Origin: Gloeobacterales cyanobacterium
GTDB taxonomy: Bacteria; Cyanobacteriota; Cyanobacteriia; Gloeobacterales; PMM-0068
DNA: 64,000 bases
NCBI GenBank assembly: GCA_038245785.1
Contig: JBBRSB010000023.1
Span: 1 to 64,000 of the forward strand
Reading direction: 5' to 3'
Program-made: the position numbers and the translations under genes
Part shown: one piece after another, positions 37,613-62,091 of the stretch
Numbering within the stretch: the stretch's first letter is position 1
How the letters are laid out: each line of letters begins with the position of its first letter
The notes under the pieces: model-generated
Database searches by the model: none
What the model was told of the DNA's origin: nothing
What the model saw: only the letters and a program-made list of their open reading frames with translations

Positions 37613-38530
37613 ATGAACAAACTTTGGGCATGGGTTAAAAACCAGCGCGAAAATATCCAAACCATTTTAATAGCGATCTTCCTCGCTTTTTTTATCCGAA
37701 CCTTTGTTGCGGAAGCACGCTATATTCCTTCAGAGTCTATGTTGCCAACTTTGATTGGTTCTCAGGACCCGTGGCAATCCGACCGCATCATTGTCGAGAA
37801 ACTTACCTACGACTTTTCTAAGCCTCAACGTACCAATGTCATTGTTTTTGTGCCTCCAGCATGCTTTCAAGACAATGCAGGCTCTGTCTCTGTAACAGAT
37901 ACTTCGGTGGCCTATATAAAGAGGATTATTGGTCTTCCGGGAGACCGCATTGAAGTACAGGGAGGCAAAGTTCAACTAGGCTCTGTGGTCTTAGACCATG
38001 AGCGCTTCCGCGTCCAGTTATTTGAGCGCACCGTTGGACTCTCTGGCGAATTCAATGGTTTTAGCGAACGGCCTTTAGCCTATCAGAAACGCCTAAAGCT
38101 AGAAAAAGATGGTGTCCAGTTTGGAGATGAAAGACTTTCCATTGCTGAAATTGCTCAGAAATTTGGTCTTGCTCCAGACCAAGTCAGCATTAAACCGGGT
38201 GTAGTGCTTATCAACAATAAAGCCTTGGACGAGTCCTATACCTATGAAGATCCCAGCTATGACATGAAAGACTTGAGTGACATTCCTTGCTATCAGGGAC
38301 AAAAGGCAGGACCTGTTATTGTTCCAGAAGGTCACTATTTTGCGATGGGCGATAACCGCAATAACTCACAAGATTCGCATATTTGGGGATTCTTGCCGGC
38401 TCATGCCTGTCGCAAAGAACAATCAGTAGTGGATACCGTACTTTCCAGTACGGGTATCACCCCTTGCACAGGACTGATTGGTAAAGCAGCTTTCCGTTTC
38501 TTTCCCTTGAATCGTTTGGGAACTATCTAA
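37613..38530 (+). CDS. lepB: signal peptidase I, copy 1
   Basis: IPSESMLPTL (catalytic Ser), YIKRIIGLPGD (Lys), MGDNRNNSQDSH. Confidence 0.95.
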   Translation: MNKLWAWVKNQRENIQTILIAIFLAFFIRTFVAEARYIPSESMLPTLIGSQDPWQSDRIIVEKLTYDFSKPQRTNVIVFVPPACFQDNAGSVSVTDTSVAYIKRIIGLPGDRIEVQGGKVQLGSVVLDHERFRVQLFERTVGLSGEFNGFSERPLAYQKRLKLEKDGVQFGDERLSIAEIAQKFGLAPDQVSIKPGVVLINNKALDESYTYEDPSYDMKDLSDIPCYQGQKAGPVIVPEGHYFAMGDNRNNSQDSHIWGFLPAHACRKEQSVVDTVLSSTGITPCTGLIGKAAFRFFPLNRLGTI

Positions 38531-38708
38531 TCAGTCTGGAAATTCTCAACTTCGGATTATTTTCATTACCCTTAGACTTACTTGAGGCACTTTCCCTGAG
38601 TTTCTGGAGTCTTCTTCCTTGAGGATAGTAGTCAAAAGAATTAGCTATCCAGTGAACCTTGGATTGGTGCTTTACGTCTAATTTGAGTTAGTATTACCGG
38701 TTTTCTGG

Positions 38709-39611
38709 ATGAATAATCTCTGGATCTGGATTAAGAGTCAGAGGGAAAATATACAAACCCTCGTTCTATCGATTCTTATTGCTTTTTCTGCCCGTGCTGT
38801 GGTAGCTGAACCGCGTTATATCCCTTCAGAGTCTATGTTGCCGACCTTAATCGGCTCTGAGAACCCTTTAAAATCTGACCGGATCATTGTCGATAAATTG
38901 ACCTACGACTTTTCCAAACCCCAGCGTTCTAACATTATTGTTTTTGCACCTCCAGTCTGTGCCCAGGCTCCCACGGGTTCTCCTTTCTCTACCAATACGT
39001 CTGAGGCCTACATTAAACGGATGATTGGTCTTCCAGGAGATCGGATCGAAGTGCAGGGCGGTAGCGTCAAACTAGGCTCTATGGTGTTAGACCATGAGCA
39101 ATTCCGCGCCCAGTTATTGGAGCGTACTCTTGGAGATGCTAACGAATTCAGTGGCTTTCATAATCAAACGCGCTTGAAGCTGGAAAAAGATGGTGTCCAG
39201 CTTGGAGACAAAAAACTTTCTACTGCTGAAATTGCTCAGAAGTTTGGACTCAATCCAGACCAAGTCAGTATTAAACCGGGTGTAGTGCTTATCAATAACA
39301 AAGCCTTGGACGAGTCCTATACCTATGAAGATCCCAGCTATTACATGAAAGACTTGAGTGACATTCCTTGCTATCAGGGACAAAAGGCAGGACCTGTTAT
39401 TGTTCCAGAAGGTCACTATTTTGCAATGGGCGATAACCGCAATAACTCACAAGATTCGCATATTTGGGGATTCTTGCCAGCTCATGCCTGCCCTAAAGAT
39501 CAGTCTGTAATCGACCGCGTACTTTCTAGTACAGGAATTGCCCCTTGCACAGGACTGATTGGCAAAGCAGCCTTTCGTTACTTCCCCTTAGATCGTTTGG
39601 GAACCATCTGA
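38709..39611 (+). CDS. lepB: signal peptidase I, copy 2 (tandem paralog)
   Basis: same motifs intact; 3' part nearly identical to copy 1. Confidence 0.95.
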   Translation: MNNLWIWIKSQRENIQTLVLSILIAFSARAVVAEPRYIPSESMLPTLIGSENPLKSDRIIVDKLTYDFSKPQRSNIIVFAPPVCAQAPTGSPFSTNTSEAYIKRMIGLPGDRIEVQGGSVKLGSMVLDHEQFRAQLLERTLGDANEFSGFHNQTRLKLEKDGVQLGDKKLSTAEIAQKFGLNPDQVSIKPGVVLINNKALDESYTYEDPSYYMKDLSDIPCYQGQKAGPVIVPEGHYFAMGDNRNNSQDSHIWGFLPAHACPKDQSVIDRVLSSTGIAPCTGLIGKAAFRYFPLDRLGTI

Positions 39612-46228: not shown

Positions 46229-46422
46229 GGCATATCTATAAAGTTCAGAATATTAGGCAGCGTGGCGATAAACGCATGTTTCCCAATTTACGTATATCAC
46301 CCGATTTTGATGAATTATTTAGGGGTATGGACGCCACAAATGGCGTTGGGTCTGTTATCATGCACTGGATATGGATTGGTGTTCTCCATTCTGGGGAATT
46401 TCATTGACTTCACTGAAAACAC

Positions 46423-46452
46423 TTGACAGGCCAGAATGTTGTGGTTTATAGT
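46423..46452 (+). promoter_or_regulatory. sigma70-type promoter, probably giving a leaderless mRNA
   Basis: TTGACA (46423-46428), 18-nt spacer, TATAGT (46447-46452); ATG at 46462; flanked by TTCATT/AATGAA-type repeats. Confidence 0.65.
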
Positions 46453-46461
46453 TTCATTGAA

Positions 46462-47001
46462 ATGAATGAAGAGTTGGTTATGCAAGTTGGCCAAGCGGGA
46501 GAGTTTCTCTGGGGTCGTGACCGAGGTTGTGAAATCCGGGTCACGATGGAAGAACTGCTAAGAAAGCTCCCTACCAACCGGACTTTTGTGGCGGACCTCA
46601 GCGCTGTGGCTGCTATGAACTATTCCGTGGCGTTAGAGCTTTTTGTAAAGCTTCTCTCCGCTTGGGAAAATCTCTATCCCGAACGAGGTTTTCTGATCCG
46701 CAAACCAACAATCGAAGTCTCAGAAGAGATTGGCGTTGCCTTAGAACATCATGGTCTCTTGGCGCTGTGTGAATCTCCCAATGGGGGGCTCAGACTTGTA
46801 GGCAAGGTATCGCAATCCGATGTGGAAACAGTTCAGTGGGCAGAGAATCAGGGTGATTTTTCCGCTCCTGACCTCGCTGCCGCCCTCGGACTTAACCTGA
46901 CTACAGCCAATCAGCGTCTTAAAAAGCTAGAAGCCAATGGCATTTGCATTCGCTATGCCGTAGGTTCTCGCCAGTATCGCTATCGCCTTGCAGGTCGCTA
47001 A
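46462..47001 (+). CDS. STAS-like domain + C-terminal winged-HTH regulator
   Basis: GRDRG...VADLSAVAAMNYSVALELF (STAS/DUF4325-like); SAPDLAAALGLNLTTANQRLKKLEANG wHTH. Confidence 0.7.
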   Translation: MNEELVMQVGQAGEFLWGRDRGCEIRVTMEELLRKLPTNRTFVADLSAVAAMNYSVALELFVKLLSAWENLYPERGFLIRKPTIEVSEEIGVALEHHGLLALCESPNGGLRLVGKVSQSDVETVQWAENQGDFSAPDLAAALGLNLTTANQRLKKLEANGICIRYAVGSRQYRYRLAGR

Positions 47002-47089
47002 CCTCTTTTTTTACCTCAAGTTTCATTTAGTCCAATGAAGTCATTAGCTTCAATTCAAAATTACCTGTTGATCTCTCAAGGAGTTTCCC

Positions 47090-47725
47090 ATGGACCGTCG
47101 CTATCCCCTACTCAACAAAGTTATGTTCATCGGCCGTTTGGTCCGTGACTGTGAAGTCAAGTATCTCGAATCTGGCACCCAGATTACTCATTTTTCTATC
47201 GCAATCGATGGATCAGGCAATCGGGGTACCGAAGCTGCATTCATCGACTTTAGCAAAATTGGCGAATTCAATGTGGCCGAGTATCTCAAAAAAGGGACTC
47301 AAGTCTTTGTTGAAGGCCATATTGACCAAACCCGCAAAGAAGTGGACGGACAAAAACGAACTTTTACGAATTTCCTTTGTGACCGTCTCCAGCTATTGAG
47401 TGCAGCCCGCAGTTCCGATGACCCCACCATGAGTGGAGTCTTAGAAGACGATGACTTTGACCCTTTCGAGACTGAGCCCGTCAAGACCAATCAAACCCAA
47501 CACGCCGACAAACTTTTCAACCTTTTAGTAGACCACTATGGAGATCCAAAGACGTGGAACCGTAAGCAGTTTACTTCTCTTACCCGATGGGTAGAAGAAC
47601 GGACCGGAACTCCTGCTGTTTCCGTTTCTTTAGAAGGTCTAAAAGCGCAGCTAGCTGCTATTCCCAAGGCGGAAGCTCAGACCCTGGCAGAAAAAATGCA
47701 GCAAGCTTTTGCCCGTTCTGCTTAA
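47090..47725 (+). CDS. ssb: single-stranded DNA-binding protein paralog with extra C-terminal domain
   Basis: NKVMFIGRLVRD...AEYLKKGTQVFVEG OB fold; internal DDDFDPF; AAGGAG RBS. Confidence 0.85.
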   Translation: MDRRYPLLNKVMFIGRLVRDCEVKYLESGTQITHFSIAIDGSGNRGTEAAFIDFSKIGEFNVAEYLKKGTQVFVEGHIDQTRKEVDGQKRTFTNFLCDRLQLLSAARSSDDPTMSGVLEDDDFDPFETEPVKTNQTQHADKLFNLLVDHYGDPKTWNRKQFTSLTRWVEERTGTPAVSVSLEGLKAQLAAIPKAEAQTLAEKMQQAFARSA

Positions 47726-47835
47726 TCGGCGGCAACTGATCCACTCCAGCCTCTTGAAGGACGCAATCTTTGCGTCCTCAATTGCTCTTCAAACAAATAA
47801 TTGTCCTCCATGGAATCGATAAGGATTGCACTCCC

Positions 47836-48750
47836 ATGTATGCCAAGACTTTTGATACTCCTCTTGCTCCAAGCTCCGTCCAGCTAAATACGAAAGCCGA
47901 TTGTGTCGGTCTCTATTTCAAGCATGTCCGCCGTCAACCGCTCTTAGATCACCCAACAGAACTCCGGTTAGCACGACTTGTCCAACAGGGTCTCCAAGCC
48001 GCTATGGAATCTGGATGGGCTCGAGACCGTAAACTCGCTCAAGCGAGAGAAGCTAGAACCCGATTGATGAAGGGTAATCTGCGTCTTGTGATTTCTATTG
48101 CTAAAAAGTACCAAGGTCGTGGATTGCCTCTAGAAGATCTTATTCAAGAGGGCAACCTTGGTCTAGTTAAGGCCATAGATAAATTCGATCCCAGCCGTGG
48201 TTTCCGTTTCAGCACCTATGCCACCTGGTGGATTCGCCAGGGTGTCGTTCAAGCGGTAGACCAACAAAGCCGCTGTGTTCGGCTCCCAAAGCACCTTCAC
48301 GAAAAGAAGCGACAGCTTCGGCGTACGGCAGTAGAACTATCCCAAAATCTCGGTCGTTGGCCCAAGCGTTCTGAACTTTGTGCAAAAGGGAACTTGAAGT
48401 TAGCAGCGGTAGAACAACTACAGCAAGACTTCTTACCCGTACGTTCCTTGGATGCGCCCACTGCTCAAGACCAAACTACCCCGTTAGGATGCCTTCTCCC
48501 CAGCCCAGAGACACCGTTGGACGAAACGCTGACTCAAAAAGAGTTGCAGAGACAGCTTCAAGACGCCGTAGCATCCTTAGAACCGCTCACGCGACAGGTA
48601 GTGGCTCTGCGTTTTGGTTTTAAGGGTCCAGAGCAAACCGTAGCTGCCACCGCGCGCATCTTGAGCTTGCCTCGGAAGAAAGTGCGTTCTTTGGAAGAAT
48701 CTGCTATTCAACAGCTCAAGCAAGTACTTAAGGAAAATCAGCCATGCTGA
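47836..48750 (+). CDS. RpoD-like (group 2-type) sigma70 factor, divergent
   Basis: region 1.2; NLRLVISIAKKY, DLIQEGNLGL, FSTYATWWIRQ; region 4 HTH. Confidence 0.92.
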   Translation: MYAKTFDTPLAPSSVQLNTKADCVGLYFKHVRRQPLLDHPTELRLARLVQQGLQAAMESGWARDRKLAQAREARTRLMKGNLRLVISIAKKYQGRGLPLEDLIQEGNLGLVKAIDKFDPSRGFRFSTYATWWIRQGVVQAVDQQSRCVRLPKHLHEKKRQLRRTAVELSQNLGRWPKRSELCAKGNLKLAAVEQLQQDFLPVRSLDAPTAQDQTTPLGCLLPSPETPLDETLTQKELQRQLQDAVASLEPLTRQVVALRFGFKGPEQTVAATARILSLPRKKVRSLEESAIQQLKQVLKENQPC

Positions 48751-49100
48751 AAGAGCGATGGGATACCTTTGTCTCAGCGTTAAATCATCCGATTGCCCAA
48801 GGATTGGCTCGGACTGTCACCGAAATTCAGGAACGTCCCCCGAAAGGAGGAAGCAACGGCGCCGTTTATCTCCTGTTTCCCAATCGACGGCTTCAGGCTA
48901 AAGCTGCCCAATACCGTCCTTGTTTTGTGGAATGCGCTACGAGATTGCTGAGCCATCCGATCAGTATTGAGTTTGTTGTAGTACCTTTTTCGATACCTGT
49001 TCAGGAAGAATCGAAAGGCATTGATGACATCGACGCTATTGCTCAATCCCTAGCTCAAGCTATGGATGGGGAAGTGTTGGAGGGCGATTTATGGAATTAA
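48744..49100 (+). CDS. small protein resembling the C-terminal domain of cyanobacterial DnaX (DNA Pol III tau)
   Basis: ERWDTFVSAL... start and AIAQSLAQAMDGEVL end recall cyanobacterial DnaX tails; overlaps the sigma stop. Confidence 0.5.
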   Translation: MLKERWDTFVSALNHPIAQGLARTVTEIQERPPKGGSNGAVYLLFPNRRLQAKAAQYRPCFVECATRLLSHPISIEFVVVPFSIPVQEESKGIDDIDAIAQSLAQAMDGEVLEGDLWN

Positions 49101-49156: not shown

Positions 49157-49208
49157 AATTTGCCTATCTTTGCCGAGACTTGGGTCTTCGGCGACGATAG
49201 GCGGATTC
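49157..49208. terminator. long imperfect hairpin between convergent genes
   Basis: GAATTTGCCTATC...GCCGA / TCGGC...GATAGGCGGATTC. Confidence 0.55.
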
Positions 49209-50208
49209 AGAGCGTCCTTTCAAGCAACTTAGAGTCTGCAACATCCATTTGATTACCATAATCATTTAGAGTAAATTGAAGTAACAAAACTAGGCGGTCT
49301 TTGATAGTAGGGATCGTCGCTTTATGAAAACAAAATGTATCCTCGGCAAATCCAAAACCAGGTTTTCCACAAATAGTTATTATGTTTTGAGAATTATAGA
49401 ATTCTTCAATAGCTTCATCAGGGCATCGCCTAAATAGAGAGTAAAGATGAGAAATTTTCTTTCTCTTATGACTCTCCTTCACAAACATGTGAGGACCGGC
49501 GGATGAATCTACTTCTGTAAGATAAAAGAAAAACTTTAAACAGCGATAATCATCTAAATCATAATGAAAGAAGTAGCTACCATTTCTTGCTTCTTTGCGA
49601 AGAGAAAGAAATGTTATATCGCTCAAGAGTAATTTTTTTTCTTCCTCTCTTTTCGCAAATAGCCACCATAGACGACTCCCTGTGTAGAGTGGTTTTCCTC
49701 CTAGATACTGAGCAGCGATATACAGTAGTTTTGGATCGTGAACAAGCTTTCGAATAGCTGGACAAAGCAGTGTTGTATTGAAGTAATCAGCTCCAACAAA
49801 TACTTTTCCGTATTTCTTTTCTGCTTCTTGTTTTTGAGCATAGTTAAATCCAAGCTCATGAGAACTATCAGCATAGCAATCATGGGTAGCAGTATAGTCT
49901 AAGAGTTCATGTAAGGTTTCGCTGGGTAAATTAATGCCCAAATAAGCTCTATCTCTTCTCAAGGAGTCAACAGCACTATCAATATCAAGCTCTTTAAAGA
50001 TAGATTGCTTAACATTGTAATGACTAGAACTCCTATGGAAAGAAGTCATTATAGAGCGAAATAGCTTAAATCGACCCAAGATAAACATTAATATCCATTT
50101 TGGATTCCCTCTTCCTCGTCGACTACTTATCTTAAAATTTTGATAGCATCTTGATAAAAAAAATGGATATGTTCTCATAGGTAATAAATCCTTAGGGTAA
50201 TAGGTCAA
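49207..50208 (-). CDS. PhyH-like Fe(II)/2-oxoglutarate dioxygenase (start uncertain)
   Basis: FHYDLD...KFFFYLTEV...GPH...DTFCFHK (HxD...H); AT-rich. Confidence 0.78.
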   Translation of the reverse strand: MTYYPKDLLPMRTYPFFLSRCYQNFKISSRRGRGNPKWILMFILGRFKLFRSIMTSFHRSSSHYNVKQSIFKELDIDSAVDSLRRDRAYLGINLPSETLHELLDYTATHDCYADSSHELGFNYAQKQEAEKKYGKVFVGADYFNTTLLCPAIRKLVHDPKLLYIAAQYLGGKPLYTGSRLWWLFAKREEEKKLLLSDITFLSLRKEARNGSYFFHYDLDDYRCLKFFFYLTEVDSSAGPHMFVKESHKRKKISHLYSLFRRCPDEAIEEFYNSQNIITICGKPGFGFAEDTFCFHKATIPTIKDRLVLLLQFTLNDYGNQMDVADSKLLERTL

Positions 50209-62007: not shown

Positions 62008-62091
62008 TGGTGGGCCGGGTTGGATTTGAACCAACGTAGCTTGCGCAGCGGATTTACAGTCCGCCCCCATTAACCACTCGGGCACCGACCC
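62008..62091 (-). tRNA. tRNA-Tyr(GTA) with encoded CCA
   Basis: GGGTCGGTGCCCGAGTGGTTAATGGGGGCGGACTGTAAATCCGCTGCGCAAGCTACGTTGGTTCAAATCCAACCCGGCCCACCA. Confidence 0.97.

Follow-up and report, generated by a model that had tools for sequence, protein, structure and literature searches.

What controls four adjacent genes that seem to join a DNA-binding regulator to spare parts of the replication and transcription machinery? The question is raised by a stretch of 64,000 nucleotides from a Gloeobacterales cyanobacterium (contig C23 of the 5.0-Mb draft genome G000; GenBank assembly GCA_038245785.1), hereafter the window, by which the whole of the DNA analysed is meant. It carries four open reading frames (ORFs) in the same direction, at 46423/46462-47001, 47090-47725, 47770/47836-48750 and 48744-49100. 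A preliminary description, made from the letters alone, had proposed that they form an inducible, co-regulated module behind a consensus promoter, with a STAS–winged helix-turn-helix (STAS-wHTH) protein, a single-stranded DNA (ssDNA)-binding protein (SSB) with an added domain, a divergent sigma70 factor and a protein like the C-terminal domain of tau. Pfam and profile matches bear out these domain calls, and co-regulation as an inducible module is supported. Sequence comparison identifies the first gene, A, as a homolog of the repressor CapS. It appears reasonably likely that a distant, ssDNA-activated kinase releases this CapS, whereupon an SSB paralog and an altered sigma factor are made. 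The features concerned are the following.

Positions 46399..46418, no strand assigned: candidate operator O1, two tandem 9-bp units just 5' of the -35 box.
Positions 46423..46452, plus strand: predicted sigma70-type promoter, -35 box TTGACA at 46423-46428, -10 box TATAGT at 46447-46452, 18-bp spacer.
Positions 46452..46471, no strand assigned: candidate operator O2, spanning the predicted transcription start and the ATG at 46462.
Positions 46462..47001, plus strand: gene A, predicted CapS-family STAS-wHTH repressor of 179 amino acids (173 from 46480).
Positions 47006..47012, plus strand: T-run after the capS stop codon, putative terminator.
Positions 47021..47057, no strand assigned: candidate operator O3, between capS and ssb (47021-47040), with an extra 9-bp unit at 47049-47057, 27 bp from the start.
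Positions 47090..47725, plus strand: gene B, extra SSB paralog with an OB fold (residues 8-103), an acidic linker and a predicted four-helix C-terminal domain (135-210).
Positions 47770..48750 (or from 47836), plus strand: gene C, divergent group-2-like sigma70 factor with regions 1.2, 2, 3 and 4.
Positions 48744..49100, plus strand: gene D, free protein of 118 amino acids resembling the C-terminus of DnaX (tau), with a KH-like domain and a tail helix; overlaps gene C by 7 nt.
Contig C2 of the same genome (G000:C2:91277-92113), minus strand: CapK-type kinase with a STAS-like N-terminus and a catalytic Asn.

CapS and the kinase CapK were described in 2026 by Chambers, Rani, Min, Villa and Corbett (EMBO J 2026; PMC13373217; PDB 9Z71-9Z73). 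CapS is a dimeric STAS-wHTH repressor, which binds one palindrome 5' and one 3' of its own gene through half-sites of the forms TTAA-n-TTAA and TTAA-n10-TTAA, spaced by 1 or 10 bp. Once activated by ssDNA, CapK phosphorylates Ser54 of CapS, which breaks the dimer (PMC13373217).

Gene A is homologous to CapS across the whole length of its protein, with the STAS domain followed by the wHTH (Pfam HTH_24). Its profile search gathered 296 representatives at E-values up to 0.001, and gene A with its best full-length matches formed a family alignment of 64 rows, 38 of which match the STAS-like family DUF4325. The profile of this alignment finds PDB 9Z71 and 9Z72 at E-values of 3e-23 and 3e-22, respectively (the gene A sequence alone reaches 0.004 for 9Z71), and hhalign pairs it with E. 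roggenkampii CapS at 99%. Ser55 of A aligns with Ser54 of CapS, is invariant in all seven orthologs and is present in at least 90% of the 64-row family. Of the residues with which CapS contacts DNA, A keeps K151 (as K154) and one glycine (G168) of the pair G169-G170, and it lacks N145. A search of the genome's ORFs with a CapS profile picks gene A alone.

The DNA on both sides of gene A holds sites of corresponding design. A repeat family was found at 46397, 46450 and 47019, and each candidate operator consists of two tandem TTCA-n-TGAA units, so that half-sites are spaced by 1 bp inside a unit and by 10 bp across both units. As read from the sequence, these spacings equal the two measured for CapS, and the sites lie both 5' and 3' of capS. 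The 9-bp period would then combine both spacings (14 minus 5), and from this we infer a tie to the filament model of CapS. A matrix built from 14 operator sites of six relatives, with the genome's own sites left out, ranks O1 (30.4 bits) and O2 (29.5 bits) as the top two matches in the 5.0-Mb genome, five shuffled genomes reaching 21.1 at most. Moreover, the only two perfect TTCATT-N6-AATGAA sites of the genome are both located here (0.4 expected). O2 and O3 occur in all seven genomes with the operon and O1 in the three of family f1 only. The 18-bp core of O2 is identical in 7/7 genomes and partly coding, so protein constraint may contribute to its conservation. O3 is non-coding, with the TTCA of its extra unit at +27 bp in six of the seven; in this genome it is degenerate (16.1 bits, third in the genome and within the shuffled range) and counts by position alone. 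In the matrix scan of the genome, no site beyond the locus beats the five shuffled genomes. A search of 14 genomes for the exact operator pattern turned up a single site elsewhere than at these loci and failed to recover the sites of the present genome, and directly 5' of the kinase genes no operator was found (best match, 12.1 bits). The left bound of the module as first described, 46399, is the start of O1; the operators and the distant kinase were absent from that account.

All 443 published capK genes are directly followed by capS (PMC13373217), and in six plasmid capS loci that were fetched for comparison, one pair being the article's own proteins, the kinase is directly upstream in 6/6. 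Beside gene A, no kinase match was found on contig C23, nor in the capS loci of six relatives. Among the genome's 20 GHKL matches is an ORF of contig C2 whose N-terminus is STAS-like. The same ORF is the sole strong match (E = 3e-25; next ORF, 0.005) when the genome's 24,897 ORFs are searched with a profile of the six plasmid kinases that adjoin capS. Its N144 aligns with the catalytic N218 of CapK, the position of CapK K237 holds K or R in all seven orthologs, and an invariant N-terminal Trp (W7, 7/7) was matched by eye to CapK W68. Seven of the order's 14 genomes have an ortholog, each in one copy; they are the seven with gene A, and within 1.5 kb of the kinase no STAS partner was found in any of them. 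G003 is a single contig of 4.19 Mb, on which the kinase (0.33 Mb) and capS (3.89 Mb) are at least 0.63 Mb apart; in the other genomes the two genes are on different contigs. Among 400 other genomes of the phylum, in searches that scored only 6-8 candidates per genome, six have such a kinase, with an adjacent or fused STAS partner in five; no match spanned both CapS domains, and 80 genomes had half matches.

Gene A was found in seven of 61 genomes, namely in 3/3 of family f1, 4/4 of f2, 0/7 of f3 and 0/47 of the rest of the class. The order capS-ssb-sigma is kept in all seven (the sigma gene of G001 is split across two contig ends), while gene D is limited to three of the 61 genomes, all of genus g1; the expectation that the four genes are conserved together thus holds for capS-ssb-sigma and fails for the tau-like gene, present in 3/7. 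Three metagenome loci repeat the arrangement; they are near G001 and G007 and hence give no independent support. The flanking genes are housekeeping genes that differ between the families. The ratio of nonsynonymous to synonymous substitution (dN/dS), obtained by simple counting for one genome pair (with G002) at high dS, is 0.008 for A, 0.058 for B, 0.072 for C and 0.056 for D, compared to 0.02-0.11 for five neighbours, and purifying selection extends across the four cassette genes and the kinase. The cassette is like its host in GC content and in GC at third codon positions (GC3), and order and operators are retained at 66% protein identity. Given the conserved order and the purifying selection, capS-ssb-sigma is inherited under such selection and is not a decayed prophage, as the preliminary description had also held. 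Likewise, no integrase, primase or phage structural gene was found among the 22 other large ORFs scanned in the window, an incomplete ORF set. An IS110 transposase (182-1135) and a tRNA-Tyr (62008-62091) are both distant from the cassette.

If DNA binding, phosphorylation, the breaking of the dimer and ssDNA as the signal are carried over from the published CapK/CapS pair (PMC13373217) to the parts, residues, sites and distribution found here, the following course of events can be proposed. A would repress its own promoter and the downstream ssb-sigma(-tau-like) genes via the three operators. Upon build-up of ssDNA, the lone kinase of contig C2 would be activated and would phosphorylate Ser55 of A, whose dimer would break up and leave the DNA. 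The SSB would coat the ssDNA and thereby damp the kinase, closing a negative feedback, while the sigma factor would steer RNA polymerase towards a larger set of genes; such a relay would explain why there are so few operators. In genus g1, the tau-like protein might in addition compete for, or remodel, the alpha subunit of DNA polymerase III (Pol III); the preliminary description had suggested that such a protein could titrate Pol III alpha or DnaB. Of the single elements, the autorepressor role of A is very probable, and there is good reason to regard the C2 kinase as its cognate kinase and, with similar assurance, ssDNA as the signal.

If this is true, the switch of an immune operon has been domesticated into the core genome of an early-branching cyanobacterial order, probably as a general stress response; its sensor works in trans, and a sigma factor widens one operon into a broader response. 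Other orphan capS and capK genes would then be expected to be working pairs overlooked by neighbourhood searches, and the LexA-less members of the order would have a candidate route to answer DNA damage. The operator, with both spacings in one site and a 9-bp period, would also offer a ready test of the published CapS model with two dimer interfaces.

Several observations weigh against this course of events. In gene A, Thr148 occupies the position of the DNA-contacting Asn145 of CapS, and the wing is about four residues shorter, with one glycine instead of two. In the kinase, CapK K239 is not retained and the N-terminal HTH of CapK is missing; the match of W7 to W68 lies where the N-termini align poorly, hhalign to CapK beginning only at kinase residue 65. 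The HTH is dispensable in CapK (PMC13373217) and is also lacking in four of the six plasmid kinases that adjoin capS. Two ordinary STAS proteins of the genome are possible alternative partners of the kinase. No further sigma70 promoter was found 5' of ssb by the promoter scan, and family f1 keeps LexA, so that the need there for a further damage switch is not obvious. The co-occurrence of kinase and gene A in seven versus seven genomes follows family lines and may reflect a single gain or loss, in which case it amounts to about one event. Nor is the pattern clean, since G004 (f3) has a self-contained kinase-STAS pair and G003, G006 and G009 have fused kinase-STAS proteins; f3 therefore lacks this kinase ortholog, not the whole kinase class.

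Some of these points are also the strength of other explanations. The same repressor and distant kinase could respond to another signal (e.g., redox, metal, light or desiccation), the operon then being a dormancy or general stress switch. The missing K239 and HTH and the LexA of f1 would suit this, as would the gene that the kinase follows, which is CobW-like in f1 and, to judge by its sequence, presumably psbN in f2. However, the kinase's neighbours vary between the families and thus say little about the signal, the invariant Trp and the K or R at the K237 position are found in 7/7 kinases, and the first regulated gene is an SSB, all of which makes another signal unlikely. It is likewise improbable that A is an autorepressor freed by other means (such as a different kinase, ligand binding, proteolysis or a protein from an invading element), with the CapK-type kinase serving other STAS proteins. 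The genome does have an RsbW-like kinase besides the two ordinary STAS proteins, and lineage-limited genes co-occur through descent; yet the CapK type and the CapS type are each represented by a single gene per genome, kinases of this kind in other genomes almost always have their STAS partner with them, and Ser55 is invariant.

An anti-phage or anti-plasmid response, in which the variant SSB, sigma factor and tau-like protein jam replication and transcription upon infection, is compatible with the CapS-kinase regulatory model and would fit the known or predicted immune operons found downstream in 348 of the 443 published CapK/CapS loci (PMC13373217). B has no acidic tip and D no clamp-loader domains, as might be expected of decoys, and the NCBIfam matches of C include an MZA anti-phage sigma model, albeit far under its cut-off. 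Defence genes are usually patchy in their distribution, whereas this cassette is stably inherited amid housekeeping genes in two families, is absent from the 400 other phylum genomes sampled and has no known effector, so we give the reading little credence. An ordinary prophage or integrative-element remnant is hardly credible. A second SSB copy is found on contig C25, in a region that looks mobile, and D is no recent duplicate of the host dnaX; the cassette parts probably came from mobile DNA long ago. The dN/dS values are nonetheless as low as those of the housekeeping neighbours, GC and GC3 are host-like, order and operators persist at the divergence given above, and B has no close relative at 12 viral loci (28-38% identity, OB fold only). 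A remnant in decay is refuted by selection, conserved order, neighbours and distribution.

The CapS-kinase reading can be taken further, to a complete LexA-independent SOS-like cascade of kinase, CapS and sigma factor in two families, which would replace LexA in f2. The 9-bp arrays would then be the footprint of the CapS filament, which was predicted from crystal packing (PMC13373217), and the free tau fragment would serve, once induced by damage, to slow the replisome. The motive for this extension is f2 itself: full-length LexA was found in 3/3 genomes of f1 and 7/7 of f3 and in 0/4 of f2 (G003, G005, G007 and G009; completeness 91-99%), one f2 genome having a peptidase-only match. We consider the extended version tentative and rather doubtful. 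No LexA box was found by pattern search in the cassette promoter regions.

The switch itself is known; its genomic separation, the composite operator and the cargo are apparently new. The earlier impression that the combination was undescribed appears to stand for the cargo and has to be given up for the regulator, whose mechanism was published in 2026. With the published CapK/CapS (PMC13373217), the locus shares a STAS-wHTH protein with an acceptor serine, sites 5' and 3' of capS, the 1- and 10-bp spacings, and a STAS-GHKL kinase with a catalytic Asn. It differs in that capK is not adjacent, in the half-site (TTCA/TGAA, with both spacings within one site), in the absence of the HTH from the kinase, in inheritance along family lines, and in a cargo of SSB, sigma70 and tau-like proteins, with no immune operon seen by domain annotation (no PADLOC scan). 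An HTH-less STAS-GHKL kinase is also found in VapK/VapS/VapC (PMC13373217), but neither VapS nor VapC lies beside the kinase here, and the sole CapS/VapS-type protein of the genome is a full STAS-wHTH protein. A word search of Dataset EV2 of that article for cyano, Gloeo, Anthocero, sigma, Nostoc and Synecho gave no match, and neither a split CapK/CapS pair nor the composite operator nor this cargo was found in print, the article's supplements being covered as far as Dataset EV2. The resemblance to a third system is one of outline.

PprI/DdrO of Deinococcus works with many operators across the genome. There, too, an ssDNA sensor removes a repressor and a damage response follows (PMC10904395); the sensor is a protease, instead of the kinase proposed here, and here one operon would be relayed via a sigma factor. 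Related pairs were also seen outside the order. On a Nostoc linckia plasmid (AP018224; L130:4017-5537), an adjacent capK-capS pair annotated as hypothetical stands before uncharacterised genes, and by word search Dataset EV2 has no Nostoc entry. Pairs of a kinase and a small STAS protein, of the VapK/VapS type, occur in other phylum genomes (L086, L087, L088, L090, L192, L193 and L199), with no VapC seen in the short flanks of the first four.

Regarding transcription, the promoter TTGACA-18-TATAGT scores 11/12 in a promoter pattern scan, which as a whole shows no excess over chance (2 found, 3.4 expected). The -35 box and a TATAGT or TATGAT box recur at identical spacing in all seven operon-bearing genomes, in agreement with the consensus promoter first proposed. 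The TTG at 46423, listed as the start of gene A, is part of this -35 box; therefore, the gene most likely begins at the ATG at 46462, a few bases past the predicted transcription start, or at 46480. The T-run after capS is present in 7/7 genomes, and the hairpins upstream of it are weak (-4 to -8.5 kcal/mol). In an RNA run, one 773-nt contig spans capS, the gap and ssb at ~96% identity; another contig of the same run covers the DNA 5' of the promoter, and such contigs cannot show transcription.

In gene B, a helical C-terminal domain is predicted to replace the acidic tip of typical bacterial SSBs (per-residue model confidence, pLDDT, of 78-86 for the block); the two other chromosomal SSBs carry acidic tips at their C-termini. 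The domain has no relative in PDB sequences, plasmids or 300 other phylum genomes, and fold searches with gene B are dominated by the OB fold. A similarity to NblA is a lead only (2/7 rows, best E = 0.001; hhalign 35% over 29 columns). No NblA above the Pfam cut-off was found in five Gloeobacterales (G000, G003, G004, G005 and G009), versus 5/5 other cyanobacteria, and the sole weak match in those five is the C-terminal helix pair of the G009 cassette SSB. The copy on contig C25 (G000:C25:19-684; L084) has an OB fold whose DNA is 87% identical over 333 nt, including residues specific to this genome's cassette copy, while its C-terminal domain is ~36% identical. This pattern suggests a recent exchange between the chromosome and a mobile element. 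C25 and C107 begin with the same 141 nt, and on C107 this stretch is followed by IS21-like genes. Further along (G000:C25:4106-8597), three co-directional ORFs, by eye a metallo-beta-lactamase-fold protein, an E2-ThiF-JAB fusion and a patatin, resemble a ubiquitin-like defence operon.

The seven cassette sigma factors form one group (support 96/77, below the starred level) outside the ordinary group 1/2 clades, in a tree whose long branches leave the cassette clade unplaced. Residues of regions 2.4 and 4.2 read promoters. All seven factors have Thr changed to Val or Ile in region 2.4 and RER changed to RKx or RHA in region 4.2, which suggests different promoter preferences. Another long-branch sigma70 factor with altered regions 2.4 and 4.2 is found elsewhere in the genome (G000:C11:56271-57359).

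Gene D has neither an AAA+ nor a collar domain nor a proline-rich linker, and it has no Pfam match. The similarity to DnaX first noticed for this protein of 118 amino acids is upheld by hhalign (94% against uncut DnaX C-termini from 12 of 30 cyanobacterial loci). Each part also matches when taken by itself, the KH-like domain at 91% and the tail helix at 78%, and they come in the same order as in the C-terminal domain of DnaX (Pfam PF20964/PF23007), at ~20% identity. With a linker-free profile of DnaX C-termini from the 30 loci, D (E = 7e-4) ranks third in the genome, behind DnaX and DnaA, and 60 column shuffles reach 8.7% at most. The reverse search with hidden Markov models did not recover the similarity, and a pairwise comparison with the host DnaX was not significant (55/1000 shuffles reached the score); D is therefore best read from its sequence as a remote homolog of DnaX, one that did not arise by recent duplication of the host gene. 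Single-sequence hhalign of D against the host DnaA, DnaX and a Cmr6-like N-terminus gave 3.6% at most. The single-sequence model of D is poor (pLDDT 51.5), and its fold search, with a best Z of 4.5, is uninformative, DciA and DnaA domain I (Z 3.0-3.6) being listed together with unrelated folds. The tail helix, sought in DnaX only, favours a DnaX origin, and a DnaA- or DciA-like fold is still possible for the domain. A search with the D alignment, run with no positive control, found no D in the four f2 genomes and G004, and the Atlas has free proteins of 103-110 amino acids, one set with DnaX_C in 14% of its members. We tentatively take the cyanobacterial DnaX C-terminal domain to be equivalent to domain V of E. 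coli tau, for which Pfam gives a weak match (1/12, E = 0.026). The E. coli domain binds Pol III alpha (PMC11470591).

A KH-like domain occurs also at the N-terminus of a protein that is by eye a Cmr6-like RAMP (G000:C20:21693-23717, minus strand), with a weak match (E = 0.018) to the DnaX C-terminal profile. Within the window, a low-GC gene with a weak PhyH match (E = 0.1) lies 3' of the cassette at 49207-50208; the genes 3' of D differ among G001, G002 and L144, which makes this spot a variable insertion site. Finally, two tandem paralogs at 37613-39611 are 77-90% identical to a single gene of G002, which we take, from a name read by eye, to be signal-peptidase-like.

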